Part shown: piece by piece, positions 4,401 through 33,339 of the stretch
Layout: every line of letters begins with the position of its first letter
How positions within the stretch are numbered: position 1 is the stretch's first letter
NCBI GenBank assembly: GCA_963600315.1
Contig: CAVCAW010000029.1
Span: 7,919-71,918 of the forward strand
DNA length: 64,000 nucleotides
Source of the DNA: Bacteroidaceae bacterium
GTDB lineage: Bacteria; Bacteroidota; Bacteroidia; Bacteroidales; Bacteroidaceae
Reading direction: 5' to 3'
Program-made: the position numbers and the translations under genes
The notes under the pieces: model-generated
What the model saw: only the letters and a program-made list of their open reading frames with translations
Told to the model about the DNA's origin: nothing
The model's database searches: none

Positions 4401-4480
4401 TTCTAAGTGCCGAAAATGTGTATCTCTGCACGAAAGATGTACCAAAAATGTGAGCAATCACACATTTTCGGAACTTAGAA
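4401..4480. repeat. 21-bp inverted repeat (one mismatch) with a 38-bp spacer
   Basis: Left arm ttctaagtgccgaaaatgtgt (4401-4421). Right arm acacattttcggaacttagaa (4460-4480), which is the reverse complement except for one base. The AAAATGTG word recurs in the spacer. Confidence 0.8.
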
Positions 4481-5548: not shown

Positions 5549-5556
5549 TAATTTTG
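5549..5556 (+). promoter_or_regulatory. Candidate -7 promoter box (TAATTTTG) for the pilus operon
   Basis: Exact TAnnTTTG, 47 nt upstream of the ATG at 5603. Confidence 0.45.
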
Positions 5557-5602: not shown

Positions 5603-7078
5603 ATGATTCGCTTTCTGTTTTTGATAGTATCACTGTTTGCCTTGAGTGGCAGCTACGCTGTGCCTTACGCAGCGCTACACGACAGCAAGCACCCCTACAT
5701 AGTGATAGCTGACGAAGATTCGCTTGACGATGAGATTCTTATCAGCGACTCGCTGTTCTACAAGATATCCAAACGGATACAGTTCCCAGTCAACAAATTC
5801 GTCATTCCGAAGGACTCGCCGCTGCGTCGCGAAATCCAAAACGAGATAATGCCCTACTCTAAAGGCGATTATACGCTGGAGGCTGTGATGCTGCGCGGTG
5901 CTGCTTCGCCCGACGGCCCCTATGAGTGGAACAAGACGCTGAGCCAGCTGCGCACCAAGTCGTTGCTCGACATCATACGTGGCAGCGTAGGCCACCATAT
6001 CGACAGTTGCCTCACGGTCAACGAAGTGCCCGAGGACTACCTCTGCCTCATCATGCTGATGAAGGAGCGTGGCGACAAGGACTGCGACCGCGTGACTGAG
6101 GTGGTGAACAAGTATATCTCTACCGACCAGGCACGACTCAAGAGGACGCTCATGGCTATGGACAACAAGCGATTGTGGACACGGCTCAGCAGGGAGTATT
6201 TCCCCAAGATGCGTGCCGCACGCGTGGTGTTGGTGTTCAGGAAGCACCGCAAGCCCGAACCACCCAAACCCATGGAGACACCCACGGTGGTAGTACCGCA
6301 GCCCGAAGAGAAGGTAGAGGTGACCGATTCGGTAACGCAAACAACAGTAGAGGAAGACACTACAGACTATGTAGTGCCTGCCGAACTGCTCCCGTCATTT
6401 ATGCCGCGCCGCGAACTGCTGTCGGTGAAGACAAACCTGCTGTTTGACTTTGCCTACGTGCCGGGCTACAACCGCTGGTGCCCGATACCCAATATAGCAG
6501 TGGAATACTACCCGCTCCACGGCCACTTCACCTATGGCGCATCGCTCGACTTTCCGTGGTGGCAGCACTACAGCCAGCACAAATATTTCCAGATACGCAA
6601 CTACCAGTTTGAGACACGCTACTACCTGCGCAACGGCGGTGTAGAACACACTGGCATCGGCAAGGGGGTAGCCTACAAAGGGCTCTACCTGCAGGGCTAT
6701 GTCAACCTGGCTCTCTACGGCATCTGCTTCGACAAGAACCGTGGCTGGGAAGGCGAAGGCGCAGGAGCCGGCGTGGGCATCGGCTACGTGTTGCCACTGG
6801 GCAAGAAGAGCCGCTGGCGCCTCGAAATGGGGGCACAGTTTGGAGTATTCTTCACCAAGTATGACCCCTACCAGTGGCAGAGTGTACTCTTCCCGGAGAG
6901 GCAGGACAAACTCTACTACTACAAGTGGAACAACTGGGGTAATTTCTTCCACAAGCGCCGCCACAGTTTCACGTGGGCGGGCCCTACACGCATCGGACTG
7001 ACTCTTAGCTACGACCTGCTCTACCGCCGCATAGCCAAGAAGGGTGCCAGCTTCAAAAGTAAGGAGGTACAGAAATGA
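5603..7078 (+). CDS. DUF3575-type outer-membrane beta-barrel protein (first gene of Bacteroidales fimbrial operons)
   Basis: The tracked ORF starts at TTG 5594; the ATG at 5603 gives MIRFLFLIVSLFALSGSYA (signal peptide). The N-terminal half has an OmpA-like block (LRGAASPDGPYEWNKTLSQLR). The C-terminal half has DUF3575-like strands (LSVKTNLLFDFAYVPGYN...PNIAVEYYP). Its stop overlaps the next start (ATGA at 7075-7078). Confidence 0.8.
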   Translation: MIRFLFLIVSLFALSGSYAVPYAALHDSKHPYIVIADEDSLDDEILISDSLFYKISKRIQFPVNKFVIPKDSPLRREIQNEIMPYSKGDYTLEAVMLRGAASPDGPYEWNKTLSQLRTKSLLDIIRGSVGHHIDSCLTVNEVPEDYLCLIMLMKERGDKDCDRVTEVVNKYISTDQARLKRTLMAMDNKRLWTRLSREYFPKMRAARVVLVFRKHRKPEPPKPMETPTVVVPQPEEKVEVTDSVTQTTVEEDTTDYVVPAELLPSFMPRRELLSVKTNLLFDFAYVPGYNRWCPIPNIAVEYYPLHGHFTYGASLDFPWWQHYSQHKYFQIRNYQFETRYYLRNGGVEHTGIGKGVAYKGLYLQGYVNLALYGICFDKNRGWEGEGAGAGVGIGYVLPLGKKSRWRLEMGAQFGVFFTKYDPYQWQSVLFPERQDKLYYYKWNNWGNFFHKRRHSFTWAGPTRIGLTLSYDLLYRRIAKKGASFKSKEVQK

Positions 7079-8238
7079 GAACAACACTGACCAGATGCCT
7101 ATGGCAGGCAGCAGCACTGGTGGGCCTGTGCACTGCGCTGACGAGTTGCGAGCGCAAGCCCGACCTGCACCTCGACTACAATGACGATGTAGTGATTGAT
7201 ATGCCTATGGTAGAACTGGAACTCGACGTATTCTGGAACTACGAGACCGAGGTAGGCGGCACCTACGACTGGAAGGGTGAATGGTACTATGGCTGGGACG
7301 ACGAAGACAAGGAGCTCTTCGGCGAGATAGGCTACACCAAGCCCTCCACCTTCCAGATACGCCGTTACTACACGGGCGATGAGCCCTATGCAGCCCACAC
7401 CAACGTGCTGGAGGCAATCATCTATGGCTACACCTACACCGGTGCCTTCAACTGGGGCTACTGGGACTTGCTGACATGGAACGAAGTGCAATCGCTCGAC
7501 GGTGTGCAGAGTTTGCGCTTCGACGAGCAGACCACACTCGAACACGTCACCGCCTACACGGGCCAGACGATGAACACCGTGCGCTACCAGGCACCCAAAT
7601 ACACCCACTCCTTCTACCAGCCCGAGGCTCTCTTCAGCGCCTACAAACAGGCCATAGAAATCAACAGAAACCTCGACGGCTTCGTCTACGACAAGGACCG
7701 CAATATGTGGGTCAAGAAACTGGAGATGCTACTAACGCCAATATCCTATATCTATCTGACCCAGGTGATAATCCATCACAACAACGGCAAGATAACGGGA
7801 GTGGACGGCAACGGCAACCTGTCGGGCATGGCGCGCAGCGTCAACGTCAACACGGGTGTGGCTGGCGAAGACGAGATTACAGTGCACTACTACGTGCGCT
7901 TCAAGAAGGGCTGCGACATGAAAGGCGAGAGCGTAGACATAGCTGGCGGACGACTCATGTCGTTTGGCATCTGCAACCTCAACGGTAACAAGGCTACCGA
8001 CTCCCCTACCAGCGGGGCACGCCACTATATGGACGTCAATATGCAGTTCAGCAACGGCATGGACTCCACCTTCGTCTTTGACGTGACCGACCAGGTGCGC
8101 AAACGCTATAAGGGAGGTGTCATCACCGTGGAGCTCAATGCCGACACCATCGATATGCCCAAGCGCAAGGGCGGTTCGGGCTTCGATGCCGTGGTCAAAG
8201 ACTTTGAGGACGGAGGCACACACGAATTTGAGATGTAG
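7075..8238 (+). CDS. FimB/Mfa2-family (DUF5119-like) fimbrial anchor/terminator lipoprotein
   Basis: Lipoprotein signal (LVGLCTALTSCERKPD). The W/Y-rich N-terminal region (VFWNYETEVGGTYDWKGEWYYGWDDED) and length are typical of the gene that follows DUF3575 in type V pilus loci. Translationally coupled to the upstream gene. Confidence 0.7.
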   Translation: MRTTLTRCLWQAAALVGLCTALTSCERKPDLHLDYNDDVVIDMPMVELELDVFWNYETEVGGTYDWKGEWYYGWDDEDKELFGEIGYTKPSTFQIRRYYTGDEPYAAHTNVLEAIIYGYTYTGAFNWGYWDLLTWNEVQSLDGVQSLRFDEQTTLEHVTAYTGQTMNTVRYQAPKYTHSFYQPEALFSAYKQAIEINRNLDGFVYDKDRNMWVKKLEMLLTPISYIYLTQVIIHHNNGKITGVDGNGNLSGMARSVNVNTGVAGEDEITVHYYVRFKKGCDMKGESVDIAGGRLMSFGICNLNGNKATDSPTSGARHYMDVNMQFSNGMDSTFVFDVTDQVRKRYKGGVITVELNADTIDMPKRKGGSGFDAVVKDFEDGGTHEFEM

Positions 8239-8291
8239 CATAAAAAGTCACTCCGCAGACAGACAGAGAGACAATGGCATGAACATAAGAG

Positions 8292-8320
8292 AAAAAAAAA
8301 CAACTTAAAAAAAACAACTT
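8292..8320 (+). repeat. Tandem A-tract repeat A9-CAACTT / A8-CAACTT just upstream of the first fimbrillin gene
   Basis: Read directly: aaaaaaaaacaactt aaaaaaaacaactt, 29 nt before the ATG at 8349. Confidence 0.9.
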
Positions 8321-8348
8321 AATATTAACTAACCAAAACACTCAACAC

Positions 8349-10196
8349 ATGAAAAGACTCAATTATCTTCTTTTCACCGCAGCTGCGCTCACACTCGCAA
8401 GCTGCGCCGACGACAACTCTATGGGTGTCGGCAACGAGTCCGCAAAATCGAATGCCGTAAGCTTCGGTTTCAGCGTACCTAACATGTTGCGTTCTGACTT
8501 GGTAGGCAACGATGCTGCCAATCAGCTCAGCAATGAGTTCGTAGTCTATGGCACCAAGCACCTGACCGGTGCTGAAAATGCCAGCGCCACCAACGACCAG
8601 GCTGTCTACACCAACTACAAGGTTGTCTACTCAGCCAACACCGCAGGTTCCTCTGAGTCAAACTCAGCTAACTGGGAGTATGTAGGAGAGACTCCGTATG
8701 ATGCCGCTACGGTTTCTCCTGCCGCTACTGGCACGCAGACCATCAAGTACTGGGACTACAGCGCAGCCAACGGCTACACCTTCACCGCTTTCGCCGGCAA
8801 GACTGAACTTGAGGCAGGCAACGTCGTTGTAACCAAGACAACCGATGCTACCGGCAACGGCGCGACTGCAAACAGCAAGGGTTATACTGTCAAGACTGCC
8901 AAGGCTGAGGCTAACCTCAACAACCTCTACTTCTCTGACCGTGTAGAGGTAGCCAAGGCTAAGTATGGCGAGCCTGTGACCCTCACATTCCGCAACTTCG
9001 GTTCGAGAGTACGTGTAGGTTTCTATGAAACCGTGCCCGGCTACTCTGTGAAGATTGACAAGTTCTACTTTGATGACAACGCAACAGAGGCTGTCACTAC
9101 CTACAAGGCAATGGACAAGGCCAACACCACCAACTTCGCAGCCGCTCACCGCAGCGTCACTCCTGCCACGACCAACGCCCTGACCGTGACCTACGACGAC
9201 CAGAACCAGCCTACAGTGACCAACACCACCGTTACCTACAGCAACACGCTGACTCTCGGCACCGGTGTTGTCAACACTACGCTCGGCAAATCGGCTACTG
9301 CTCCGTCTTGGGACCAGACCAACGGCACTTGGAACACTGTGTACCCCAACGAGGCTTGCACCACTCCGATGCTCATCCGTTGCGACTACACCCTCACCGC
9401 TGAGGATGGCTCCAACGAAGAGATTCACGTGAAGAACGCCCGCGTGGTTGTTCCCGCTGAATACATGAAGTGGAAGCCCAACTATGCCTACACCTATCTC
9501 TTCAAGATTTCTGACAAGACCAACGGTACTACCGGCACAACTCCTACCGATCCTGACAATCCGAAGCCATACGACCCAAGCAATCCTGACACCTCTGACG
9601 ATCCTGAAGGACTGCACCCCATCACTTTCGACGCTGTAGTAGTTGACGCTACCACTGGCAATCAGGAGACCATCAGCACTGTTTCTACCAACACCGTGAC
9701 TACCTACGCTGAAGGTTCTAACGTAACAACTAACGGCGAGTACACGGTTAACGAGACAATCAAGGCTATCAACACTAACACCAGCAACAAGACTGTCATC
9801 GTTCCTACCGCAGACAAAGCTAAGTTCGTTAAGCTCGACAAGGTTGCTACCGAGAGCGAAGTAAACGCACAGCTCAATGGTTCGTTGCTCGGCATCACCA
9901 TGACTGACGAGACTTCTACTGTCGACGGCAACTACTTGACCTTCACTCCGGCTGAGGCTGGCACCTACGCTTACATCTATACGAACACTGCTTACAAGGC
10001 AGCAGTTTACACCTCTGCTGCAACTGCCACCCACACCACTGGCACAGTATACTACGCCAAGACTACAAGCGGCGTGTACTACCCAGCTTCTGGCATCAGT
10101 GCAGAGAACTTTGACACTTACAAAGCCAACCTCTACACTCTCACTACTACAGCTACTACTGGTGTCTACGACATCAAGGTTATCACTGTAAAATAA
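8349..10196 (+). CDS. Mfa1-like fimbrillin family lipoprotein, paralog 1 (candidate major stalk pilin)
   Basis: Lipoprotein box LTLASCADD. Blocks shared with the next paralogs: NEFVVYGTK, NYKVVYSAN, WEYVG, QTIKYWDYSA, YFSDR, TFRNFGSRVRVGFYETVPGY, VVPAEYMKWKPNYAYTYLFKISD, HPITFDAVV. Candidate maturation site P-N-M-L-R48. Followed by a strong hairpin. Confidence 0.8.
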   Translation: MKRLNYLLFTAAALTLASCADDNSMGVGNESAKSNAVSFGFSVPNMLRSDLVGNDAANQLSNEFVVYGTKHLTGAENASATNDQAVYTNYKVVYSANTAGSSESNSANWEYVGETPYDAATVSPAATGTQTIKYWDYSAANGYTFTAFAGKTELEAGNVVVTKTTDATGNGATANSKGYTVKTAKAEANLNNLYFSDRVEVAKAKYGEPVTLTFRNFGSRVRVGFYETVPGYSVKIDKFYFDDNATEAVTTYKAMDKANTTNFAAAHRSVTPATTNALTVTYDDQNQPTVTNTTVTYSNTLTLGTGVVNTTLGKSATAPSWDQTNGTWNTVYPNEACTTPMLIRCDYTLTAEDGSNEEIHVKNARVVVPAEYMKWKPNYAYTYLFKISDKTNGTTGTTPTDPDNPKPYDPSNPDTSDDPEGLHPITFDAVVVDATTGNQETISTVSTNTVTTYAEGSNVTTNGEYTVNETIKAINTNTSNKTVIVPTADKAKFVKLDKVATESEVNAQLNGSLLGITMTDETSTVDGNYLTFTPAEAGTYAYIYTNTAYKAAVYTSAATATHTTGTVYYAKTTSGVYYPASGISAENFDTYKANLYTLTTTATTGVYDIKVITVK

Positions 10197-10220
10197 AGGG
10201 ATAACCTCACCATAAATTCG

Positions 10221-10247
10221 GTAGGGAGGGAGTGATACCCTCCCTAC
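10221..10247 (+). terminator. Intercistronic GC-rich hairpin (possible attenuator/partial terminator) after fimbrillin 1
   Basis: gtagggaggg (10221-10230), agtgata loop, ccctccctac (10238-10247). Perfect 10-bp stem 25 nt after the stop codon, with no clear T-run. Confidence 0.45.
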
Positions 10248-10287
10248 TGCCAAAGAAAAGGAAGAAAACTCTTAACATTTACGAATC

Positions 10288-11955
10288 ATGAAAAAAACTT
10301 ATCTTATTGTTGCGGCTGCAGCACTGCTCACAGCAAGCTGCGCTGACGACAGCACGACAGGCGGCAACGACTTCGCCAAGAGCGCACCTATCGCTTTTGA
10401 CATGCAGACTCCCGCTATGCTCAAGGCAACAGAGAGCGGTGCCACTGCCGCCACCAAGCTCGGAAATGAGTTTGTCGTATGGGGAGAGAAGAACGAAGGA
10501 GACGGCAAAACGGCTACCTCGACAGAGAACCTCGTGTTTAAGAACTACAAGGTGCAATATACCGCAAGTAGCGCATACACCACTACCAGCAACACCAAGG
10601 ACTGGGAGTATGTGGGCTACACCCCATACACTAATGCTCAGGTATATCCTGCCATAGCCGACGGCACAAAACAGACCATCAAGTACTGGGACTACAGCGC
10701 CAGCAGCTACACTTTCACTGCTGTGTCAGCTAAGCAAGAGGACATCACTAACGGCAAAGTGAAGATAACCAAGACTGAGACCGGCACCAACGGTGTCTAC
10801 GACAAAGGTTACACCATCGAACTGGCAGACGGAGCTACCACAGGCGACATCTATGTTGCTGACCGCAACGTCATCAGCAAGAGCAATGGTACTGACCGCA
10901 CTGCAACCAATGCCTACGGCGGCAATGTGACCTTCACCTTCCGCAGTTTCCAGACCAAGGTTCGCTTCGGTCTCTATGAGAGGATTCCCGGCTACAAGGT
11001 GAAGGTGACGAGCGTGAAGTTCGGCGGCACCGAAAACACTGCCAACTTCGGTGTTGACGGCAAGTTCATCACTGCCGGCACTGGCACCAAGTACACCGTT
11101 ACCTATGAGGACGGCACTAACAACACCACAGCCAACAGAGCAGTGGTAGCTGTAGACGGAACTTCTACAAGCACCAACACTCTGACGGGCGGCGCCAACA
11201 TATTTGGAGATGGCACTTACCTCGGCACTGCAGCCACTGCCCCTACCTACGATCAGGCAGGCGGTGCTTACACAGCCATTCTGCCTTACCCGGGCAACAC
11301 CACCAACATGAAGTTGACCATCTCCTACGACCTCATCTCAGAGGATTCGGGCGAAAAGATATCCATCAAGGACAAGACAGCGGAAGTACCCGCTGCCTAC
11401 TGCCAGTGGAAGTCCAACTATGCCTACACCTACCTCTTCAAGATTACCGACAACGCAGCTGACCTCTACCCCATCACCTTCGACGCTGTAGTAGAGACTG
11501 CCGAGGAGGGTACGCAGGAGACTATCACCAGCGAGACCGAGCCTTCTATCACTACGTTCGCAACCAGCGGCAACACGGTGGTTACTGGCAACGACGAGTA
11601 CAAGACAGGCAGCACTATCTACGCATCAGTAGTAGACGGTGGCACAGCGGTAACTCTGACCGACGCTACAGCCAAGGTTTACACCGTTTCGTCCACCGAC
11701 GAGGCCAACTTCCCAATTACTGCTGCTTCGGTAGCTAATGCTATTGAACACGCATCAGTCACTGATGCCAAAATAACGGCTACAGCTATAACAGGTGCGA
11801 CTATCGCGACTGTTGTACCTATGGGCGACGGCACAACAGCCACTCGCACTCTGTCAGCCATTTCATGGACAGCAGAGTCGGGCAAGACCTACGCTGTAGA
11901 GTACACCGGCACAACAGGCAAGAAGACCTACAAGATAATCAAGATTGCTGACTAA
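10288..11955 (+). CDS. Mfa1-like fimbrillin family lipoprotein, paralog 2
   Basis: Lipoprotein box LLTASCADD and the same conserved blocks (NEFVVWGEK, NYKVQYTAS, WEYVGYTPY, QTIKYWDYSAS, YVADR, TFRSFQTKVRFGLYERIPGY, EVPAAYCQWKSNYAYTYLFKITD, LYPITFDAVV). P-A-M-L-K46. Confidence 0.8.
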   Translation: MKKTYLIVAAAALLTASCADDSTTGGNDFAKSAPIAFDMQTPAMLKATESGATAATKLGNEFVVWGEKNEGDGKTATSTENLVFKNYKVQYTASSAYTTTSNTKDWEYVGYTPYTNAQVYPAIADGTKQTIKYWDYSASSYTFTAVSAKQEDITNGKVKITKTETGTNGVYDKGYTIELADGATTGDIYVADRNVISKSNGTDRTATNAYGGNVTFTFRSFQTKVRFGLYERIPGYKVKVTSVKFGGTENTANFGVDGKFITAGTGTKYTVTYEDGTNNTTANRAVVAVDGTSTSTNTLTGGANIFGDGTYLGTAATAPTYDQAGGAYTAILPYPGNTTNMKLTISYDLISEDSGEKISIKDKTAEVPAAYCQWKSNYAYTYLFKITDNAADLYPITFDAVVETAEEGTQETITSETEPSITTFATSGNTVVTGNDEYKTGSTIYASVVDGGTAVTLTDATAKVYTVSSTDEANFPITAASVANAIEHASVTDAKITATAITGATIATVVPMGDGTTATRTLSAISWTAESGKTYAVEYTGTTGKKTYKIIKIAD

Positions 11956-11982
11956 GCAATCGCTCGCAGGCAAGACCTGACA

Positions 11983-12017
11983 GGCAGGACGGGGTTCGAC
12001 TCCCCGCCCTGCTACCA
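11983..12017 (+). other. tRNA 3'-half-like minihelix (acceptor-like stem + T-arm + ACCA); not an intact tRNA
   Basis: ggcagga | cgggg ttcgact ccccg | ccctgct a cca. 5-bp T-stem, 7-nt loop matching TTCRANY, 6 of 7 acceptor-like pairs, and an encoded ACCA tail. No D-arm or anticodon arm upstream. Confidence 0.4.
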
Positions 12018-12133
12018 AAACAAAAAGATACAGTCCCCCACACACCACTGCGGCAAGGGCACGCTGGGCGACCGAGAGGGGAAAGAATAATACCAAGACC
12101 TGAGCGGGACGGTTTCGCTCATGCACAAACACT

Positions 12134-14161: not shown

Positions 14162-14170
14162 CGCACAGCA

Positions 14171-15379: not shown

Positions 15380-15446
15380 GACGATACGCCCAACCTGATT
15401 AGGGCAGTTACGACACCGACAAAGCACATACACACACATCGCAGAC

Positions 15447-16505: not shown

Positions 16506-16577
16506 CCTTAAACGCACACACTCCGAACACTTCACAAGAACAATATACACACGACAACAAAAATAACACGCTGATAT

Positions 16578-25500: not shown

Positions 25501-28500
25501 TGCCGGCAGGCAACATGGACTATATGACCTCTGCCGCCACCGGTCAGAAGCTCTACCGCATCTCCAAAGACCCCAACCCGACACACGACCAGACCTATAT
25601 CGACATAGGAGTGTATGAATATGCCCACACCGAGCTGCAATACACCACCAACGGCGACGAGGTCGACATCCTCTGGGTATCGCCCACCGAGAAGCCCGAC
25701 AACGGACTGCCCGACGGCAGCGCATGGAGCCAGCCTACGTCAGACCTCCAGCGAGCCATCGAGACGCTGCTCGCCAGCCGCAACGGCCACCGCAAGGAGA
25801 TACGCCTCATGAACGGAACCTTCACACCTATCTATAACATCGAAGACCACCTGGCGTTCTATATCGACACCAAGACCCTCAACAAGTCGGTCACCATGAC
25901 CGTCAAGAGCCGCGACGACAAAGGCAACGTCACAGCGTGGAACACTGGCTACGGAGTGAAGTCGCTCACCATCAAGGGCGGCTACAGCGAACAGATAGAA
26001 AACGTCTACGACCCCGAATCCTACCCCGCTATCATTCGCCAGCAATCGCGCACCAACGCCAGCTCCGACCGATGGGATCACCTCTTCTACATAGCCGACG
26101 CCACACAGCGCTACGGATACTACAACAACGGCGCCGAAGCCTATACCGATGCCAACGGCTATGGTAGCTATCAGGAGAAAGACGGTAGCTATGACCACAC
26201 CGTCAACACCATACCTATTCACCTCGACGGCGTGACCATCGTCAATAATCAGGCGCGCTCAGGACAGAACGGAGCGGCCATCTACTACGAAGACCGCACT
26301 GAGACCGAGGAGGTGACACCTACCACCGCCAACATGTCGGTCAACACCTACTTTACCGATGCCGACAAGACCATCGCCTCGACCAACAACGAACCTACTA
26401 ACTACTACAACCGCACCGTCGACAAATACTACACCGACGCTACCTACAGCACCGAGTCAGCGACACCGACAGCATACGCTACCTATAAGTATGGGGAGAC
26501 GAGTGCCAACAAGATTATCATCAGCAAGAGCAAGGTGATGAACAGTGGCTCCTACGAGAGCAACGACAACACCACCAGCGCCGTCTACATAGGCAAGAAC
26601 GGTGGCAACGCACTGCTCTACAACGACGTGATGCACAGCAACCTGGGCAACCCGCTCGTGTCGGCAGTGCCCACCATCATCGTCAACAACACCTATGCGC
26701 TCAACAACGGTCGCGTGGACCTCAACGGCGACAACACCGTGACATCATACCTCGACATCAACCAAGGTAGCGACGGAAGCGACTACGACGCCGAGGGCGG
26801 CGAGATGCTCTCGCCAAGCTACAGGGCTGCGGGCACCAAGTCTGCCACCATCACGGGGTCGGCAATCTACAACTCCGTCTTCTGGCGCAACAACTACAAC
26901 GGCACGCAGTTCACGCTGCCGGGCTATGTCAGCCCCGACAAGTCGGGCGACATCTTCTCGCACAATGCCGTCACGGGCATCCCCACTGCTCTGTACAACA
27001 CCAGCGCCACCAACTACAACGTGGGACTATCCGACACCAACAGCGACATCATCTACGGCCCTAACTTCACAGACCCCAAGGTCGATGCCACCACTACAGC
27101 ACTTGTCGAGGCACGCGACTTCACTATCCAGCCGTCGCAGCGACTGCTCAACACCGGATCCGACGACCTCTACAACGACAAAGTGGGAGACAGCGAGCAG
27201 AACATCATCGACCTGGCATGGAACACCACCACACGCATTGATGCCAGCGGACAAACCCGCTTCCGCTTCACCATAGACCGCGGAGCCTATGAGTATCAGA
27301 ACAACCTCAACCGCATCATCTATGTCAACCCCAACGACATGGTTACGGGTCTGGGCAACTCATGGTCTTCGCCTATAGGCTATGGTCAGCTGCAGACAGC
27401 CATCGACCTGGCTGCCGTATATCATGCCACATGGCCTACTGAAGAGGCCTACGTCTTGGTTAAGGGCTCCAACACCACCAACAGCGACCTCCACACAGGC
27501 GAGACCATCACCATGCGCGACGGCGTAAGTATCTATGGCAGCATTCTTCCTTCAATGTCCAAGGATTGCTCGTATAGGTTAGACGAATCAACCGGTGAAT
27601 ATCTCTATCCCAACGACGTTGTCAACAGCTATATCAATCTGATTCGGGCAGAACGTAACGGAATAGCCGCTCTCAATGCCAACAAGACCAGAGTGAGCGG
27701 CATTAAGCTGGAAGCAGGCGCTTCCTTAGACACTGACACTACCGGTTACATAGCGTCGCTCGTAGATGGATTCGACGTAACAGCCACAACCGACGACAAT
27801 ACTACTGGCACAGTCACTGCCCCCGTCATCGACGTGCAGCCAAAGACCGGCACAGCTGTGCTACGTAACATCATCGTACACGACAACGACCTCTCGGCCA
27901 CCGAGGGTGTCAACCTCGCCAATGTGGACAATGCCCTCATCTACGAGGCACTGTTCCGCGACAACAAGGTTGCCACAACCGGCTACAATCTTGCTCTCGG
28001 CTCGACCGGCTATGGCGTAAACCTCACCGTGGAGGGCAAGACCCGTGGTGCTGACGGAACCGTCACCTACAATGGCAAGGGCGATGCTGACCACCTCTAC
28101 TATTCCATCGTGAACTATGCCGGACAACCTGCCACGGAGAACACACTCTCGGGACATAACTACAAGTTGGCAAACCACGACCTTAACTATCAACTTACGG
28201 AGAATTCAACTCACATCGATGAGTTTGACAAGAAGAACCCGCTGACGGGTGTGGCAAAAAACTTGGCAAATTATATCCATTACAGTTCATACACAGACGA
28301 GGATTGGAATACCATACTCCTCGACCGCGACCTCCTCGGCACCCACCGCTTGCTGAACAACGTGACCAGCGAAAATAAGATTGACCGTGGTGCGTTCGAG
28401 ACTTGGCGAGTAGAGAATGATTTCACGTGCACAAGCACATACACCTGCTACGTCTCAGAGTATTCTCTTCAGCAAGATGTTTTTTCCGGTGAATGGACAT

Positions 28501-29807
28501 GGTGGGCAGACCAAGTACCCATTAAGATCAACAATCCGAAGTTCCCACAACCAGGCTCGGTTGTCTACATCATGCAGGGCAAGCGTCTCGAGATGCCGAT
28601 TCCGTCAAGTTCAGTCAGCTACCCCACACCTTTCACCCCGGGCTATCTGCTCCTGCAAGACGGTGCATCGCTCTATAGCAACGGCAATCAGGTGAGTGTA
28701 GCTTACGTGGGTGTGGAGCGCAGCGTGCGCACTGACGGCTCCTTAGTCAGTCTGCCCTACCCGATGCAGTATCTCGGCACTGACGCCGCCACCAACGGCG
28801 TGGGCACTCCGTCATATTCTTCTGACGGCGTGCTGGTCCTCACAAGAAACACCAACCTCGCGTCCTACAACTATAATGGAGTAGGTCGCTCGGCATGGAA
28901 CTCCGCATTCAGCGTCAGCAACTCACCCTACTGGACTGCCCAAGCTTCAGACGAGACTACACCAGCCAACCAGGGTGTACTGGTGGTAGGTGCTGTCCTC
29001 AGCGATGCGACCACCCAGGGAACGACAGTCCGCTTCACTGCCCAAGGTGATCCCGACGACATGACCGACTATCTCTACACAGAAGCCTCAGGCGAGACTT
29101 ACAAGACCGTCACTCTGACACAGTACGACGACCGCACGTCTACCGACGGTGCAGCCGACTTCACCGAGAAGGAAGACATGGGTTGGAACTGCATCGGTCT
29201 GCCCTATCTGGTTAGCGACTACAACACAGCAGCCACGGAGACCCTGACCGGCGACAGCCACTACAACATGGATATTCCTCACACCCTGTGGCTCTGGTAT
29301 GACGGCAAGACTCGTCCCGACGGCACCACCCTCGATGGCGACGGCGGCTTCTACAGCGTTAGCTCATGGGACAACAGCGACTGGCACCTCGCCTCGGGCG
29401 AAAAGGCACGCATCTGGGTCGGCGAAGGCATCTTCACGCAGACAGCAGCCGTGGCAGACACCGAGGAACTCACCTTCTACCGCCCGAAATACACCGCCAG
29501 CTCTAACCCGTCACCGCAGTATGAAGGCAACGGCGACCTCACTGAAGCCACCGTCCTCAACGCACGCCACTATGCTGGCACTGCCGACGACAACGACATG
29601 CGTCAGGACTTCACCATACGCACCGACGGACGCACACTCCACATCGACGGACTCTCGGGTGGCGAAACCATCACTCTCTACGATGCGGCAGGCCGCATCT
29701 ACAGCAGAGCCACTGCCTCGGCAGGTCGCTTCACCACCGCTGTCCACGCCCCTGGAGTCTATATCATCAGAGTGGGCAACAGCTCCAAGAAAGTCACAAT
29801 AAAATAA
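16578..29807 (+). CDS. Giant (4409 aa) secreted multi-beta-helix adhesin-like protein with T9SS C-terminal sorting domain
   Basis: Single 13.2-kb ORF with signal peptide MHRKTFCLLILMALLCHIGAAA. It contains about seven modules. Each opens with an (I/F)YV..P.G...G.SW..P...LQ.AI-like segment and closes with a D-x-G-A-Y-E-like motif (IDMGAYEY ~21585, IDIGVYEY ~25598, IDRGAYEY ~27274, IDRGAFE ~28378). Many GGAIY/GGGIF...N turns are typical of right-handed parallel beta-helix (Pmp-like) repeats. The C-terminus ...ETITLYDAAGRIYSRATASAGRFTTAVHAPGVYIIRVGNSSKKVTIK is T9SS CTD-like. Confidence 0.85.
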   Translation: MHRKTFCLLILMALLCHIGAAADEIRYVAKYGSYANDGKTWKTAKNNIQDAINDLVDNGLTGEVWVAAGTYTPTESTESTGGSTLYMSFKIPAGISVYGGFKGGENGEKTKDEREVLTPKSTGKFYKNYTILSGDLSSAAKFEWNYTKDQWNTSFYGNCYHVVTFATNGFDATTGRANPNGGGYRSALLEGCIIEHGNATNTEITGRPHNAYGGGVYMVDGAHLKQCVVRECVASRDGGGIYMDGGGYIERCFVTDCQALGIGTNYGYGGGVCMDGPDSYKNVPMIQRQSGISGCVGRMGGGLAIKANDTNGNNKYKIACTAMIIANNTATTEAGGVYMLKGGAITQTTIVNNKCNGAGVSINGMATGRSAGVYCRDNGILANSVLWGGKCDANNDIQYATSHSGNSQDLRPYVMYTALTKSDYTDWSGVIKNHAFKVSDYNTRKDAEQAGAVISSSESFPMFYHPTPKAGYIHENQQHQFFMNLIDGMTATDENGNAITDREAYDFQPTSRSGIAHKGVAVIDIDRDRQTPAMEVDWDIVGTQFNSRPTLGGYTTSSIAIRPEVDDANKKVNFYIDPNDKSGTEYDDIGSSWDQPVRFLNDALSFIRDDQALDTPVYCKSGYAINVYVKEGTVDNTNSRTTTRVRKTGFVMPSNTTLLGGYPSGNTGTDLTGRNNNAHPTTITGNVQDDYDLNVIHLLRFNEGTENTTIDGVYIRYANARSQIGRDDSGYTKGGAIAIYNSKNIKISNCLMVGNTASAGSAAFIYKSTGIQFENCIIRNNESREVDADGNFTSNTGNVVVGQESEVSFNHCDFIRNVGFAIDSYGKTKVTNSVFYGNMNQPVEDTRNNESRALYAVRLLDNGTYSGDHNLYDKKSATADFMTKLSADEQKTNEAILTYEYSETSNTYPRFLNPTKNAGVNTNGDATYYGRTVSYMPHNNNPMVNRASKIDDEGNANDDHSKWGNDMIGISRDFGGLPDIGSLENHEALDSDAADKSYSDGQKAYGTVMYVRDYNTYNADGTVATTDNSTTHADGTQRDGASWENAINGNAAYSFTYTYSKTTAPVTITPHTPTVSTSITAEDATVYKIGMLSNNSAGNTVYYATQNGNYLKSISDAITGDDFILLSASGGYYYIYNKTAKKYVTYTEVLRGENKVVLSDANTSNATWRLYPVNTSDNYHTYCIQPSSTDNSESSLAWNYYGGTGNNIGFYNGTDNNGKWQFITATAGSPTTTTTQETKNINGLQYAVSTVESEMAKNYTQRITHELEKSVSGTYTTTHTYQDLPADYTQREVWVGAGIYTNTSGYEVRNHVKVYGAFPKTGTPGKNERHPQLTTDIALSTANQGLTVSDYETILQTNSTKGATTYNLSVLSQPLECRVTTDHNTNVPADRVIYEGAEWDGFTIRYGYKTGISSSGSGGGRDGGAGLRLYENVTVSNCVIRDNVLKDGVKGRGAGVYVDGSTIINCYIMDNAGSGSEIYGGGMYMIKGTIYNSVIVGNSLSGSTIHGAGAFFESADFFNNTMVNNTGCGSIEVWTASAAEAHLTLYNSIIIAGDNKLVDRSNSTKITFKNCFLQSTNTANDAKNNTDYLVDETNKWYCGGTAFSAATCNPFAKTYTDAVKDYDFRIEQKDNYNAVNAGTEFIDLDNDGSSDITIPSFDMDYTDRVQDCEIDMGAYEYNGAYSIQPDLSSVDGQAIFYVTPDGRGNASATNPDNAACASKLQKVLDAAGRYKFTTPNKRVIVKVANSKTLADDGDETTYFKYYACRTTDVNNDDVRIWSIIVPRGVEVWGGYTDEWTSSSENGFYSKDSNDTVTDKRDITGNPTYFHSYYYNSSEKTNANTYHVVTFTDKVFDGDGNAYSTADYDASTNTLSHNSTYAEGGTYLEVNSKTNDRAVIDGIFITGGQADANTASSEVNINQYGGAAIVTDYAHVRNCIVRNNEATYGGALALTHGALVSGCLIDQNTADYGGAIYVFENGTILSDGTTINSKAGTGEAMDKNMAHVYTSTIVNNLANEQGGGIFFGQDDDNINVRVNSSVIWQNNSTNMANVSGLYNPTRTNETISTLEFFPFSYCGVQNLRMSGANNLSLGNLNKSGARFAGSKNAAGNNSTLAVETADEDFTRFSDFGYYALTDYSILVRTGMPSTEYTNLVNNLGLSQSDFTAVDRLVSTNKNRSYIEMGARALDKIISNGQLMLRLFVAQPTDINIDAAETMMNMKTTATAGSLEEYYSQEGSSFAYPMQSLQDALDYIIEKRSEFNDTKTGLLEEGANNLPFEICMGRGTFYPTRNTYGIYGNSPANTFAIPEGVSIYGGFAVGNPNKDYSFFGRYNKKGSDISSITDNTKPGTIAGNVVTVIENDADTTVTLMKNYEIEQMPIDKMLSSRRSNDNNGNNIIEPWEFQHQTVLSGDAEGQTYSGVYHVVTVVADQNVVGMLPKQLNSHEKANTTYHTMSYDDYIKKFGIGSFDYEEGQYVLLDGLQITGGTACNFIEGSTGFNSKYDFYCGGGLLVDGNRYCNDFNNWDGTTYDGTNSKGETWGNVVDKHNAQIGTAGYRDIPLNIVNCKFSDNEGGLGAAIYSNGTMDIYKSSFEHNKAHSGEETLKDANNIDRQVQYPGNGGAIVCTHQLGAYNTIFANNEAYSDNTSLEPHLFENIDNEGKNKMHSGSGGAIYMGPFGFFHLVNCNIVRNQANMYPAVFTLNPNPDLTNGRHGGVGLSNTLRPSSVYYNQFLNTVIWGNDISKASAKANDGNELFKFNARMICNYWLGSHAPEDSRYTSPSFTDADNMPTNQADLDADNDKEQSKYGEVAWFSAYEEGRGITPLNDADLRNNQYSPFTYARDLVHTAGQSQTPAIDTYQNCNILLSATNFDLEGPNFVNPAADPGYDGYDESSDWSPARLSNLTDNGSGQVAQTVELVNEEYIAKFDTYSDYASLPNRSVYYGGGNPYGYTSEKPGDLKIEGAYTVTRMLYGYENNKTYMPAGNMDYMTSAATGQKLYRISKDPNPTHDQTYIDIGVYEYAHTELQYTTNGDEVDILWVSPTEKPDNGLPDGSAWSQPTSDLQRAIETLLASRNGHRKEIRLMNGTFTPIYNIEDHLAFYIDTKTLNKSVTMTVKSRDDKGNVTAWNTGYGVKSLTIKGGYSEQIENVYDPESYPAIIRQQSRTNASSDRWDHLFYIADATQRYGYYNNGAEAYTDANGYGSYQEKDGSYDHTVNTIPIHLDGVTIVNNQARSGQNGAAIYYEDRTETEEVTPTTANMSVNTYFTDADKTIASTNNEPTNYYNRTVDKYYTDATYSTESATPTAYATYKYGETSANKIIISKSKVMNSGSYESNDNTTSAVYIGKNGGNALLYNDVMHSNLGNPLVSAVPTIIVNNTYALNNGRVDLNGDNTVTSYLDINQGSDGSDYDAEGGEMLSPSYRAAGTKSATITGSAIYNSVFWRNNYNGTQFTLPGYVSPDKSGDIFSHNAVTGIPTALYNTSATNYNVGLSDTNSDIIYGPNFTDPKVDATTTALVEARDFTIQPSQRLLNTGSDDLYNDKVGDSEQNIIDLAWNTTTRIDASGQTRFRFTIDRGAYEYQNNLNRIIYVNPNDMVTGLGNSWSSPIGYGQLQTAIDLAAVYHATWPTEEAYVLVKGSNTTNSDLHTGETITMRDGVSIYGSILPSMSKDCSYRLDESTGEYLYPNDVVNSYINLIRAERNGIAALNANKTRVSGIKLEAGASLDTDTTGYIASLVDGFDVTATTDDNTTGTVTAPVIDVQPKTGTAVLRNIIVHDNDLSATEGVNLANVDNALIYEALFRDNKVATTGYNLALGSTGYGVNLTVEGKTRGADGTVTYNGKGDADHLYYSIVNYAGQPATENTLSGHNYKLANHDLNYQLTENSTHIDEFDKKNPLTGVAKNLANYIHYSSYTDEDWNTILLDRDLLGTHRLLNNVTSENKIDRGAFETWRVENDFTCTSTYTCYVSEYSLQQDVFSGEWTWWADQVPIKINNPKFPQPGSVVYIMQGKRLEMPIPSSSVSYPTPFTPGYLLLQDGASLYSNGNQVSVAYVGVERSVRTDGSLVSLPYPMQYLGTDAATNGVGTPSYSSDGVLVLTRNTNLASYNYNGVGRSAWNSAFSVSNSPYWTAQASDETTPANQGVLVVGAVLSDATTQGTTVRFTAQGDPDDMTDYLYTEASGETYKTVTLTQYDDRTSTDGAADFTEKEDMGWNCIGLPYLVSDYNTAATETLTGDSHYNMDIPHTLWLWYDGKTRPDGTTLDGDGGFYSVSSWDNSDWHLASGEKARIWVGEGIFTQTAAVADTEELTFYRPKYTASSNPSPQYEGNGDLTEATVLNARHYAGTADDNDMRQDFTIRTDGRTLHIDGLSGGETITLYDAAGRIYSRATASAGRFTTAVHAPGVYIIRVGNSSKKVTIK

Positions 29808-29819
29808 GCACGGACTATT

Positions 29820-32800
29820 ATGAAATACAGCATCAACAAGATACTCGTCCTCCTCTGTCTGCTCACGGCGGGATTCACCAATGCCGCAGCTGAAGACTAT
29901 CTCTATGTCATCACTGACAACAACGGAAACTTCCTTGCCAACAACAGCGGCACACTCAGCAACTCCACATCTTTCAACCCCAAGACCTGCGTGTGGACTT
30001 GCTCGGGGAATGGTAGCGGAACATTGGCAAACCAGGGAAAATATCTGTATGCAAGCCTTTCTGCATTTAGCTCTTATTCGCTGTCAATAAATTCAAATTC
30101 CACAGAGTGGACGATATCTGGCAATAAAGTATATACTGGTTATCTTAATTCTTATTATATACAATTCAGTAACAACAGTTGGTCGACAAACAAATCCACG
30201 ACCAATGCAGCCTCTTGCTACAGCGCAACCAAGGTCTCCACTGAAGCTGTAAAAAACTTGTCTGTCGAAGGCGACAAGAAGCAGGAGCTCAAGCACGTAG
30301 GTGACCGCCGCAGCTACAATGCCAAGATGTCGTATACCCCAGCCTACAACACCTGGACATTCAACGGCACTTCCTACTACTCATCCACCGACGACTCCTA
30401 CGTAAGCACCAACGCTCCCGAAGCCATCACCAACAAGGCTAACTACAAGTGGAGCAGTTCAGCATCGTCCAACGTCAAAATGACCACCGATGACACCGAC
30501 GACAGTAAAGCCACAGCCAGCTATGACAGCCGAATCACCACGCAAGACGAAAGCGACCAAGGTGAAGTGTCACTCATGGTCACGGCTACCATTCCCGCCA
30601 GCAGTAGCAGCTTCTTGACCAGCGACATCATCGAGACGGCATCTGTCACCGAGACCTTGCTCACACGCAGCGTAGCCACCATCACTGCCAACGTTGACAA
30701 AAGCACCATCAGCATTGACGAAACAGCCAAAATCACCGCCACCGCATCGTCGGGCGGCACCATAAGCTATTCGTCAAGCAATACCGACATAGCCACCGTC
30801 AGCACCGACGGCACCGTCACCGCCGTCAGCACTGGTGGAGCGGAGACTGCCACTGTCACCATCACCCTGACTACACCGCAGACCGACGACTACGAAGCTG
30901 CTAGCTCCACCGTCGACATCACGGTGACCCGGCGGCCCAACCCTGTGGCTGCCGCTGCCGACAAGACAGAACTCTACGTTGGCGAGACAGCCAAAATTAC
31001 CGTCAGCCAAAACACATCGGGCGGCACCATCAGCTATTTGTCAGAAAACGAAGCTCTCGCCACCGTGGGCAGCGACGGAACCATCACCGCAGTCAGCACC
31101 GGCGGCGTGTCATCAGCCTCAGTGGCTATAAAGGTGACTTCGGCACAGTCTGGCGACTATCAAGTCGGCACCTCCTACGTCATCGTTTCAATCAAGAAGC
31201 GTCCCACCACGCTGAGCCTCGCCTACGACAAGTCGACCACCACCTACGGCAACCAAGCCCCCGTTCTGACGCAGTGCAAACTGACCGATGCCACCACCGG
31301 CAGCGAAATCTCCGGCAACGTGTCGTTCACTTCGTCCAGCCAGTGCATCACCCTCAACAATGCCATGGGTGAACTCACCGTCCACAAGGCGGGCACCGCA
31401 GTCATCACCGCCACCTTCACCGGCAACGACACCTACGATGCCGCAACAGCCAAATTCACAATAACCGTCAACAAGGCACCCACACTACTCACTTTTCCGC
31501 AAAGTGACTACGTGGCACAGCTGAGCCACACCTTCACGTCGCCCACCGCTACACTCATGCCAGCAGAGGCAGGCAACGTGACCTATAGCTTCACCAGCGA
31601 CACCGACGGACTGATAACCATCAACTCCACCACCGGCGAGGTACAGACCAACACCCTCACCGGCACAGCCACCGTCACCGCCACCTTTGCAGGCAACGAC
31701 TGCTACGAGGCAGCTACTGCGTCCTACACACTGCTCGTGTCGACAAAGGCCATGCCTACGCTGTCTGCCTCCGTCAAACCCCTCTTCTATGTTGACGAGA
31801 CAAACCAAGCCACTGCCTCCACCAACAGCACCAATGGCTGCAAGTTTGAGAGCACCGACACCGACGTCATCACAGTAGACGCCGATGGCACCATCACTGC
31901 CGTAGGCGAAGGCTATGCAGCTGTCAGGGTAACATCACTCGAAGACGACACCTATGTGGAGTATTACGAAGACTACCCTATCAACGTCTTCCGCTACCCC
32001 ACCCAACTCACTTTTTCTTATCCGCAAACCATCTATTTCACCGACCACGAGGGAGAAATCAGTCCGTCGCTATCACTCATCGAGACGGCTACAAACACCA
32101 CGGTAGACTTCGGCTCGCTGATGTCCTTCAATACCTCAGATGCCAACGTAGTCACCGTCGATGCCCTCACAGGTCACGTGACCATCAAGGGCAGCGGCAT
32201 CGCTGTCGTTACAGCCACCTACGGAGGTAATCGCAAATATCAATCCACGTCAAGCACTTTCATAATGATGATTAACTACGCCTCTAAGCCAGGTTCATTC
32301 ATCTATCTCAAAGACGCATCGGGCAACTACCTCTCTGCCGACGGCACCACAGTGAGCACCACCGCCACCCAAGACGCATCAGCCTTGATATGGTACGGCA
32401 CAGACCGCTCACTGCTCTTCTACCAGTGCGGTCGCTACCTTGGCTCAGCCGCACCGACGCTCGCCCCTGTCGTAGCTATGGGCGAGAGCGGCACCAGCTT
32501 CACCTACACCCACACCGACGACAAGACTATCATCAGCGACGGCACGCAAAACCTCTCCATGAACGGCAACGACACCTGGACCGTCGAACAAGCCCTAAGT
32601 CTCCCCCTCACATTCAAGAGCGTAGGCCACGGCTACTCCACCCTCTACAGTCCCTGTGCACTGCAATGTCCTGCCGGCGTGACAGCCTTCTACCCCACCA
32701 GCCGCACTGCCGACGACACTGGAGCTGCCGACTACGTGATTACACTCCAGTCCTTGTTGGCGGGAGTTATTCCCAAGAACACCCCCGTGGTGCTCTACAC

Positions 32801-33224
32801 TTCAGATATCGACACCTACCAGTTCACCATCATCGACTCTGACACCACCACACCCAACGACCAGTGGAGCGGACTGGCAGGAACCATGCCCGCCATCACC
32901 ACCGCATCGGCCTACCAGGGCACACAGTTCCCCTACACCCTGCAGCCCGACAAGTCAGGCTCGGCAGGCTTCTACCCCTGGCAGAGCAACTACCACTCCA
33001 CCATCGAACCATTCAGATGCTACATACCCGGTGCCAATGCGGCGCAGTCCAAGGGCTTCCGCTTCAGCATTAACAACGACGACGTCACCGGCATCAGCAC
33101 AATCACTACCGACACCGCTGACGACACCATCTACAACATCAATGGCACAGCGCTGGGCACCGAACTGAACACACTGCCGGCAGGCATCTATATCCGCAAT
33201 GGCAAGAAGATACTCAAGCGTTAG
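29820..33224 (+). CDS. Cell-surface protein with about six Big_2-type Ig-like repeats and a T9SS C-terminal sorting domain
   Basis: Signal peptide MKYSINKILVLLCLLTAGFTNAAA. Repeats of the type ...TISYSSSNTDIATVSTDGTVTAVSTGGAETATVTITL... span ~30630-32280. The C-terminus ...DDTIYNINGTALGTELNTLPAGIYIRNGKKILKR is T9SS CTD-like. Starts 12 nt after the giant gene. Confidence 0.8.
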   Translation: MKYSINKILVLLCLLTAGFTNAAAEDYLYVITDNNGNFLANNSGTLSNSTSFNPKTCVWTCSGNGSGTLANQGKYLYASLSAFSSYSLSINSNSTEWTISGNKVYTGYLNSYYIQFSNNSWSTNKSTTNAASCYSATKVSTEAVKNLSVEGDKKQELKHVGDRRSYNAKMSYTPAYNTWTFNGTSYYSSTDDSYVSTNAPEAITNKANYKWSSSASSNVKMTTDDTDDSKATASYDSRITTQDESDQGEVSLMVTATIPASSSSFLTSDIIETASVTETLLTRSVATITANVDKSTISIDETAKITATASSGGTISYSSSNTDIATVSTDGTVTAVSTGGAETATVTITLTTPQTDDYEAASSTVDITVTRRPNPVAAAADKTELYVGETAKITVSQNTSGGTISYLSENEALATVGSDGTITAVSTGGVSSASVAIKVTSAQSGDYQVGTSYVIVSIKKRPTTLSLAYDKSTTTYGNQAPVLTQCKLTDATTGSEISGNVSFTSSSQCITLNNAMGELTVHKAGTAVITATFTGNDTYDAATAKFTITVNKAPTLLTFPQSDYVAQLSHTFTSPTATLMPAEAGNVTYSFTSDTDGLITINSTTGEVQTNTLTGTATVTATFAGNDCYEAATASYTLLVSTKAMPTLSASVKPLFYVDETNQATASTNSTNGCKFESTDTDVITVDADGTITAVGEGYAAVRVTSLEDDTYVEYYEDYPINVFRYPTQLTFSYPQTIYFTDHEGEISPSLSLIETATNTTVDFGSLMSFNTSDANVVTVDALTGHVTIKGSGIAVVTATYGGNRKYQSTSSTFIMMINYASKPGSFIYLKDASGNYLSADGTTVSTTATQDASALIWYGTDRSLLFYQCGRYLGSAAPTLAPVVAMGESGTSFTYTHTDDKTIISDGTQNLSMNGNDTWTVEQALSLPLTFKSVGHGYSTLYSPCALQCPAGVTAFYPTSRTADDTGAADYVITLQSLLAGVIPKNTPVVLYTSDIDTYQFTIIDSDTTTPNDQWSGLAGTMPAITTASAYQGTQFPYTLQPDKSGSAGFYPWQSNYHSTIEPFRCYIPGANAAQSKGFRFSINNDDVTGISTITTDTADDTIYNINGTALGTELNTLPAGIYIRNGKKILKR

Positions 33225-33301: not shown

Positions 33302-33339
33302 GGCAACCGAGACACATCGTCCCGGTTGCCATTTTTTTT
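33302..33339 (+). terminator. Rho-independent terminator closing the pilus/adhesin operon
   Basis: ggcaaccg (33302-33309) and cggttgcc (33323-33330) form the stem, followed by T8 (33332-33339). Confidence 0.75.

Follow-up and report, generated by a model that had tools for sequence, protein, structure and literature searches.

What does a 4409-aa protein with a type IX secretion system (T9SS) sorting signal do at the end of an operon for a lipoprotein-built pilus? The question is raised by nine genes on the + strand, at 5603-33224, of the 64-kb stretch of Bacteroidales DNA analysed here (the window). In order, they encode a DUF3575 protein (gene 1), a candidate anchor (gene 2), four pilin paralogs (genes 3-6), an Mfa4-like accessory pilin (gene 7), the giant (gene 8) and an immunoglobulin (Ig)-repeat protein (gene 9). 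We read them as a chromosomal operon of an uncultured Prevotellaceae-like Bacteroidales, from gut or rumen, that would produce an Mfa-type type V pilus together with a co-expressed, T9SS-dependent giant acting as its tip adhesin, a reading to which we give an even chance. The operon is best filed as a widespread, previously undescribed form of the Mfa1-5 arrangement and not as a new kind of system.

Gut and oral Bacteroidales other than Porphyromonas gingivalis adhere chiefly by means of type V pili, whose tips and ligands there are almost unknown. To our knowledge, Mfa5 of P. gingivalis is the only T9SS substrate that joins a type V pilus. Its vWA domain is thought to bind other accessory proteins.

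Mfa5 carries a T9SS C-terminal domain (CTD), depends on PorU and on this CTD, and shares the fimbrial tip with Mfa3 and Mfa4 (PMC8512630, PMC7835359). It is the sole fimbrial component that is not a type V pilin, and it builds up inside porU and CTD-deletion mutants (PMC8512630, PMC7835359, PMC13655056). The mfa5 gene is reported to occur in tandem copies with variable N-terminal halves and a conserved C-terminal half, and some genotypes lack the vWA half (PMC8512630). In the literature, we found no paper describing Mfa5-like T9SS partners outside P. gingivalis or the gene combination reported here, which a preliminary description of the locus had likewise not recognised as a described system.

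The giant and its Mfa4-like neighbour

Gene 7 (15447..16505, +) encodes a predicted accessory pilin lipoprotein. Its AlphaFold model (predicted local distance difference test (pLDDT) 85, predicted template modelling score (pTM) 0.82) finds its best Foldseek match in 4rdb (E 4e-9), followed by other type V pilins including Mfa3 (5nf4). The 4rdb structure is the strain W83 counterpart of Mfa4 (PMC4789730). As modelled, gene 7 carries the fold of the accessory pilins Mfa4 and Mfa3. The gene 7 family is small, with 82 proteins.

Gene 8 (16578..29807, +) starts 72 nt past gene 7 and encodes a Sec signal peptide without a lipobox. Searched at whole length, the 4409-aa protein has no match in Pfam; scanned in segments, it matches Chlam_PMP at 25.2 bits (cut-off 20.6) in segment 22578-25577. 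Its first module is weakly similar to stretches around residues 620-780, 1290-1520, 1770-1960, 2270-2320 and 3045-3090, which points to tandem beta-helix (Pmp-like) modules. Homologs were searched with the N-terminal 1000 aa as query, in an index that returned no protein above ~1750 aa, the query itself included; these homologs carry Beta_helix (PF13229), Chlam_PMP (PF02415), NosD (PF05048) and sometimes Por_Secre_tail (PF18962) domains.

At the other end of the protein, the last 54 residues (29643..29804, +) match the NCBIfam model of the type A sorting domain, TIGR04183, at 28.9 and 30.1 bits (cut-off 23; E 3.4e-7 for the latter). The Pfam version of the sorting-domain model stays under its cut-off at the same place, and the C-terminus gave no meaningful match among PDB sequences. 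We describe gene 8 as a predicted Sec-exported chain of diverged beta-helix modules with a type A T9SS sorting domain. Chlamydial Pmp-type or 'choice-of-anchor Q' beta-helix proteins with T9SS tails have Chlam_PMP repeats in common with it. The known examples are, however, single-module proteins of ~600-1700 aa without a link to pilus operons, whereas gene 8 has at least six diverged modules and is tied to an Mfa4-like gene.

Its position, its signal type and the Mfa4-like gene directly upstream make gene 8 the predicted counterpart of Mfa5, with a passenger of another kind and of much greater size. The locus resembles the mfa1-mfa5 operon in placing a stalk pilin, an anchor, Mfa3/Mfa4-type accessories and, as last component, a non-lipoprotein with a T9SS CTD on the same strand. 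It differs in that DUF3575 and anchor-like genes come first in place of the stalk pilin, in having three long pilin paralogs instead of one, and in a second large protein, the Ig-repeat protein of gene 9, after the giant. Gene 8 itself differs from Mfa5 in its far larger size (4409 aa), its beta-helix modules and its lack of a vWA domain.

Next, we turned to relatives of the operon. A scan of species-representative genomes for the pilin family gave 78 loci, mostly from rumen and gut Prevotellaceae/Bacteroidales metagenome-assembled genomes (MAGs). Upstream of the pilins, an anchor-like gene is present in 42 loci and a DUF3575 gene too in 38; a DUF3575 gene also stands ahead of the anchor-like gene in L084-L086. 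We counted as informative those anchor-positive loci, 28 in all, whose sequence continues for 5 kb or more past the last pilin match. In 23 of these, a + strand open reading frame (ORF) of at least 900 aa lies downstream of the pilins, and nearly all such ORFs run off the end of the fetched sequence.

The downstream giants split into two unrelated families, one gene 8-like (8 ORFs) and a second one (29 ORFs) that occupies the gene 8 position in most other operons of this pilin family (loci L002-L004, L016, L030, L033, L035, L037, L038, L040-L042, L045, L049, L051-L053, L056, L071, L074, L076, L077 and L082). Five members of the second family, four of them searched whole and three of these four plus the fifth in segments, have no match in Pfam. 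For example, in L002-L004, which represent a widespread gut species, the giant is called at 4054 aa and follows a DUF3575 gene, a 384-aa gene, two pilins and two short genes. Several giants of this family begin with IGGNVYGGGN-type repeats.

Gene 7 homologs that are 29-34% identical lie in the same layout: DUF3575, a ~400-aa protein, two long pilins, a short pilin and the gene 7-like gene. Collinear gene 8 homologs (4892, 4805 and 3950 aa) follow them after ~20-120 nt, and in the loci examined a gene 7 homolog is always followed by a gene 8-family protein. The smallest case comes from a horse-gut MAG (L075:17074-19233), in which a 719-aa mini homolog of gene 8 lies directly after a gene 7-like pilin gene. 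Over its whole length it aligns with a gene 8 core at 29% identity over ~700 residues (E 5e-70). This core (27411..29501, +) comprises the final beta-helix module together with the C-terminal domain. The tail of the 719-aa protein looks CTD-like by eye and matches no CTD model.

Because the mini version consists of the last beta-helix module and the C-terminal domain only, we describe the gene 8 family, as judged from these alignments, as a conserved C-terminal core preceded by a variable, expandable N-terminal array. The range from mini to giant around a conserved core parallels the conserved C-terminal half of mfa5. Since the adjacency of genes 7 and 8 is kept down to 29-34% identity and a giant ORF is present in 23 of 28 operons, the comparison supports a linkage that is not accidental. 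Of all the evidence this conserved synteny is the strongest, and the neighbours of the gene 7 homologs are its most telling part.

A number of operon contigs (L005, L007-L010, L013, L015, L021-L026, L028, L034, L039 and others) are filed under non-Bacteroidales MAG names, among them Bifidobacteriaceae, Faecalibacterium prausnitzii, Lachnospiraceae, Gemmiger, Oribacterium and Lactococcus garvieae. These are probably mis-binned contigs or mislabelled 'cleanbin' MAGs.

Much of the preliminary description agrees with these results. It had presented gene 7 as a pilin-like lipoprotein, now joined by a predicted fold that matches Mfa4/Mfa3, and gene 8 as a 4409-aa beta-helix protein that takes the Mfa5 position with a different architecture; the Chlam_PMP match, the weak internal repeats, the domains of the homologs, the CTD and the Mfa4-like gene upstream all fit this view. 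The synteny survey that it had proposed finds the adjacency of a gene 7-like gene and a giant conserved in distant relatives.

Pilin set, candidate anchor and operon layout

Genes 2-7 each encode a signal peptide that ends in a lipobox cysteine (LTSC, LASC, TASC, LTAC, PGC and TAC, respectively), and this cysteine is invariant or almost so in homolog alignments. Genes 3-6 are mutually paralogous, at 27-42% identity. Three of them are long: the stalk-type gene 3 (615 aa; 8349..10196, +) and gene 4 (555 aa; 10288..11955, +), which are 42% identical to each other, and gene 5 (675 aa; 12134..14161, +), which is 37-41% identical to both. Gene 6 (402 aa; 14171..15379, +) is a short paralog without the C-terminal extension; it is 27-29% identical to genes 3 and 4 in the core only and is a candidate accessory or tip pilin.

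The AlphaFold model of gene 4 (pLDDT 80) has 11 Foldseek matches at E <= 0.001, all to solved Bacteroidales type V pilins including Mfa2 and with match probabilities of 0.99-1.0. Gene 4 is accordingly modelled as a type V pilin fold, and the same fold is expected for genes 3, 5 and 6 from the 27-42% identity among the paralogs. Bacteroidales type V pilins described as putative cell adhesion proteins and solved in structural genomics (3liu, 4jg5, 4k4k, 4gpv, 3up6, 3t2l, 4h40 and 3pay) have the fold match, at a Foldseek probability of 1.0, and the lipoprotein precursor form in common with genes 4 and 7, but identity to them is 9-15% and template modelling (TM) scores are modest (0.35-0.5). Genes 3-5 differ from these pilins, in addition, by an extra C-terminal extension of 150-280 residues.

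At around residues 47-58, each paralog has an R or K (MLRS, MLKA and MLRA in genes 3-5, QLK in genes 6 and 7), which is consistent with the cleavage position of type V pilins. The N-terminal 47-65 residues are of low confidence in the AlphaFold models of genes 4 and 7. Among PDB sequences, nothing meaningful was matched by genes 3, 6 and 7 or by family profiles built for the pilins, gene 2 and gene 7. When the profiles of the anchor, pilin and gene 7 families were compared with one another, alignment was confined to the signal peptide and the N-terminal region. The pilin family numbers more than 6590 homologs, a few of which carry PF13149 (Mfa_like_1).

Gene 1 (5603..7078, +; alternative start TTG at 5594) encodes a secreted protein, putatively an outer-membrane beta-barrel, whose residues 276-439 match DUF3575 (PF12099) at 40.8 bits against a gathering cut-off of 21.1. 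Gene 2 (7075..8238, +) encodes a lipoprotein in the Mfa2/FimB position, our candidate anchor; it has no meaningful match among PDB sequences in sequence and profile searches. Literature searches on DUF5119, the family to which gene 2 comes closest, and on the function of DUF3575 returned nothing relevant.

Gene 9 (29820..33224, +) encodes a secreted protein of 1134 aa with a Big_2 match (36.5 bits) and related internal Ig repeats. Its orthologs are 43-50% identical. The exact protein is not on record in the contig index, and two metagenome scans for relatives gave no useful result. Its C-terminal third (32200-33224) holds a module of ~330 residues (...GFYPW...FRCYIPG...) followed by a short CTD-like tail. 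This module is common to at least 17 of the 150 best-listed large proteins and has no family name in the libraries searched.

The nine genes are separated by gaps of -4, 110, 91, 178, 9, 67, 72 and 12 nt, in order, and are bounded by the only + strand Bacteroides-type promoter motif of the region and a strong terminator. The candidate promoter, a motif match of the form TTTG-N19-TAATTTTG (5526..5556, +), is one of just two such matches in the whole window, and no other lies on the + strand. For the -7 element TAnnTTTG, a motif scan of that strand gave positions 4822 and 5549 alone, with no occurrence between 5603 and 33224. The intrinsic terminator (33302..33339, +) consists of an 8-bp GC stem with an inner 3-bp stem, followed by T8; its folding energy is -19.2 kcal/mol (z -5.0), and none of 200 shuffles is equally stable. 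Generic sigma-70 promoter and simple terminator scans stayed at background level and were ignored; such scans are not applicable to Bacteroidota promoters.

Here too the preliminary description is largely borne out: nine same-strand genes with short gaps or overlaps, a DUF3575 protein at the start, a type V (Mfa-like) pilus gene set as judged from the lipoboxes and the predicted folds of genes 4 and 7, an 1134-aa Ig-repeat protein at the end, a candidate promoter at 5549 and a canonical terminator at 33302. It had also raised the matter of an independent promoter before 16578, and the motif scan shows no internal promoter motif.

Possible attachment of the giant to the pilus

How would such an operon build one organelle? 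In the mechanism that we propose, with P. gingivalis as the model, the pilins would travel to the outer membrane as lipoproteins, where an Arg/Lys-specific protease would cut off the N-terminal strand at the R/K around residues 47-58. The long pilins would then polymerise by strand exchange on the gene 2 anchor, and two accessory pilins, the short gene 6 product and the Mfa4-like gene 7 product, would cap the fibre. The giant would pass the outer membrane via the T9SS and, in the manner of Mfa5, use its conserved C-terminal core to dock on these accessory pilins; from the tip of the pilus it would extend a beta-helical adhesive fibre. Gene 9 would be a second co-transcribed surface protein with an uncertain export route.

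Several points weigh against this tip-adhesin reading. Display of the giant on the pilus, or co-assembly with it, is suggested by analogy with Mfa5 alone. The window genes that were scanned include no T9SS component gene and no gingipain-like protease gene. A single transcription unit for genes 1-9 is suggested by the absence of internal motifs alone. Gene 2 matches DUF5119 at 24.7 bits, just under the Pfam cut-off of 27; although 15 of 18 gene 2 orthologs match the same family, the sub-threshold score leaves its role as an Mfa2/FimB-like anchor at plausible. Genes 3-7 match no Pfam or NCBIfam model, curated fimbrillin families included, which sets them apart from mfa1-mfa5, and fimbrillin family names can therefore not be confirmed by profile. 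For the Mfa2/FimB-like anchor and the four Mfa1-like fimbrillins of the preliminary description, genomic context and lipobox in the first case and predicted fold in the second remain in favour, while the family profiles do not bear the names out.

The second protein once thought to be T9SS-sorted adds to these points. The C-terminus of gene 9 matches no T9SS CTD model even at E <= 10, and because of this a T9SS sorting domain is shown for gene 8 only (TIGR04183, 30.1 against 23); of the two T9SS-sorted giants in the preliminary description, one is left. The shortened, CTD-like tail of gene 9 (33120..33221, +; ...IYNINGTALGTELNTLPAGIYIRNGKKILKR) belongs to a recurrent C-terminal module. TIGR04183 is matched below threshold by 3 of 15 members of this tail module (best E 0.0011), and the module profile compared with canonical CTDs in hhalign gave a probability of 85.8%, with a 12-residue deletion between two conserved motifs. 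T9SS sorting of gene 9 is, on this profile likeness, a possibility.

The remaining points against docking also speak for the main rival explanation. Cargo with a type A CTD usually attaches to the cell surface independently, surface anchoring being the outcome in characterised examples, and the CTD of gene 8 is an ordinary one of this type. The preliminary description had seen no vWA-type motif, and profile scans found no vWA domain in gene 8, whole or in segments, or in gene 9, and no pilin-like domain was detected in gene 8. The occurrence of two unrelated giant families at one operon position fits 'any large adhesin' better than a specific docking interface. According to this explanation, pilus and giants are co-regulated but separate: the giant adhesins would be anchored through the CTD-sortase route (PorU/PorV, anionic lipopolysaccharide (A-LPS)) and would act together with the pilus in adhesion. 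We regard it as a serious, if minority, possibility. It does not readily account for the immediate adjacency of the Mfa4-like gene and the gene 8 family down to ~30% identity, nor for the retention of the C-terminal core down to the 719-aa mini version, which is suggestive of a specific partner. In addition, Mfa3 and Mfa4 are gone from P. gingivalis fimbriae when Mfa5 or its CTD is lost (PMC8512630).

Could the locus do without a long pilus altogether? The pilin-fold lipoproteins, much like non-filamentous lipoproteins of the type V pilin kind, would then form an outer-membrane platform that includes the DUF3575 barrel, or serve as export or anchoring helpers for the giant. Such a role would suit the lack of matches to curated fimbrillin families in genes 3-7, the large extra C-terminal domains on the three long pilins and a DUF3575 protein without known role. 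Pilin-like lipoproteins with other roles do exist, PG1881 being an example (PMC11225709). Against this, the locus holds a full Mfa-type set in canonical order (anchor-like gene, long pilins with an R/K site, short pilin, Mfa4-like gene), and the pilin family is very large, with some members matching Mfa_like_1. We consider a pilus-free platform improbable.

Finally, the adjacency could be incidental, with the pilus genes transcribed apart from the two large genes. This reading is disfavoured to the point of being very improbable because the same gene order recurs in dozens of species-level genomes: the hairpins after genes 3 and 4 could terminate transcription and promoter prediction is weak in this group, but the 72-nt gap ahead of gene 8 is unstructured and without a promoter motif, and only 12 nt lie between genes 8 and 9.

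The locus and its relatives suggest that the T9SS-partner principle is general in Prevotellaceae, with unusually large cargo. They also offer defined partners, the Mfa4-like pilin of gene 7 and a conserved core of ~700 residues in gene 8, with which it becomes testable how a T9SS substrate is handed over to a lipoprotein-built pilus. In rumen and gut Prevotellaceae, the giants, most of which are without any domain annotation, are plausible candidates for what attaches the cells to fibre, the host or other microbes.

Intergenic hairpins and flanking DNA

A GC-rich hairpin of 12 bp, lacking a T-run, lies in each of the gaps that follow genes 3 and 4. The one after gene 4 is a tRNA-like minihelix (11983..12017, +), with the hairpin part at 11983-12013: a 12-bp stem (7 + 5) and a T-loop TTCGACT closed by GG/CC are followed by ACCA. 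It scores 51.2 bits with our covariance model of the element (R1), of whose training set this copy was part, and is the sole strong match in the window. Rfam and ARAGORN report no family and no tRNA gene at the minihelix or at the hairpins.

Among the fetched loci, the minihelix is found at 59 non-redundant places, for a total of 70 copies; examples are L005:11691-11725, L035:9827-9861 and 11936-11970, and L002:9916-9950. The gene strand carries 68 of the 70. We estimate that chance would yield roughly one hairpin of this kind in the same amount of sequence. At 57 of the 59 places, its start lies a median of 24 nt past a stop codon that ends a pilin-homolog ORF, a long one in nearly every case: the minihelix follows 53 of 157 long pilin ORFs compared to 1 of 59 short ones.

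Across 47 distinct copies, neither the loop TTCGACT nor the C at the second position past the stem varies, and the 3′ end of the element reads ACNA. Compensatory changes are seen at 11 of the 12 stem pairs. The covariation score is 0.754, compared to 0.247 for shuffles and at most 0.15 for slid controls, for copies that had been selected for pairing.

In its helix of 7 + 5 bp, its loop and its ACCA end, the element is like the acceptor/T-arm minihelix of tRNA, which is a minimal substrate of RNase P and of CCA-adding and T-loop-modifying enzymes. It is unlike tRNA in lying inside an mRNA after pilin stop codons, and the tRNA likeness is read from sequence alone. We hypothesise that the minihelix is an mRNA processing or stabilising signal that may borrow tRNA-processing enzymes. 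A literature search for tRNA-like mRNA elements in Bacteroidales returned nothing relevant. If functional, the minihelix after long pilin genes would be a new kind of bacterial operon punctuation.

The hairpin after gene 3 (10219..10249, +; 12 bp, loop AGTGATA) lies in a 91-nt gap with a folding energy of -25.7 kcal/mol (z -2.7) and matches R1 weakly, at 16.6 bits. Possibly it represents a variant of the processing signal proposed for the minihelix. A similar hairpin, with the loop AGCGATA, is found after a pilin gene in L006.

Within the proposed mechanism, the hairpins after long pilin genes, the minihelix included, would probably process or stabilise the mRNA and thereby keep the stalk pilin in excess over the giant. 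The most extended form of our proposal joins two export routes in one organelle. A T9SS-delivered beta-helix fibre of ~4000-4900 residues would dock at the type V pilus tip via the Mfa4-like pilin and the C-terminal core of the giant, in a scheme general to gut and rumen Prevotellaceae with interchangeable giant families, and the minihelix would recruit RNase P or other enzymes of tRNA processing and in this way set how much stalk pilin is made relative to the giant. Taken as a whole, this combination is tentative and somewhat unlikely to hold in every part.

The operon is flanked by ordinary chromosomal genes (M24 peptidase, pyridoxal phosphate (PLP) enzyme, tyrosyl-tRNA synthetase (TyrRS), proton-translocating pyrophosphatase (H+-PPase), RNase R, GH97 and capsule export). 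Among the other genes of the window, 41423-45511 (+) encodes a secreted protein of 1362 aa with Laminin_G_3 and PKD domains, a weak Peptidase_C1 match and a CTD-like tail. This tail scores 16.6 bits with TIGR04183, under the cut-off of 23, and is a hint that the host uses a T9SS.

Upstream, a non-coding stretch of 1.2 kb separates the M24 peptidase gene from the pilus operon. It contains a 24-nt inverted repeat (4398-4421 and 4460-4483, 92% complementary, 38 nt between the arms) and a 198-aa ORF (4864-5460) that has no family match and looks non-genic. In L002-L004, by comparison, an AraC-family regulator gene (2475-4103) lies directly upstream of the DUF3575 gene; the upstream stretch of the window is without such a gene.

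The promoter motif and the start codon of gene 1 are flanked by a 14-nt imperfect inverted repeat pair (5354-5367 and 5647-5660, 93% complementary). We considered an invertible promoter at this position and regard it as unlikely, because one repeat arm falls within the coding region of gene 1 and the flanking genes that were scanned showed no recombinase gene.

Just past the terminator, three overlapping or adjacent short ORFs of 115, 105 and 103 aa lie on the - strand (33381-34635). They look like fragments of one disrupted gene.

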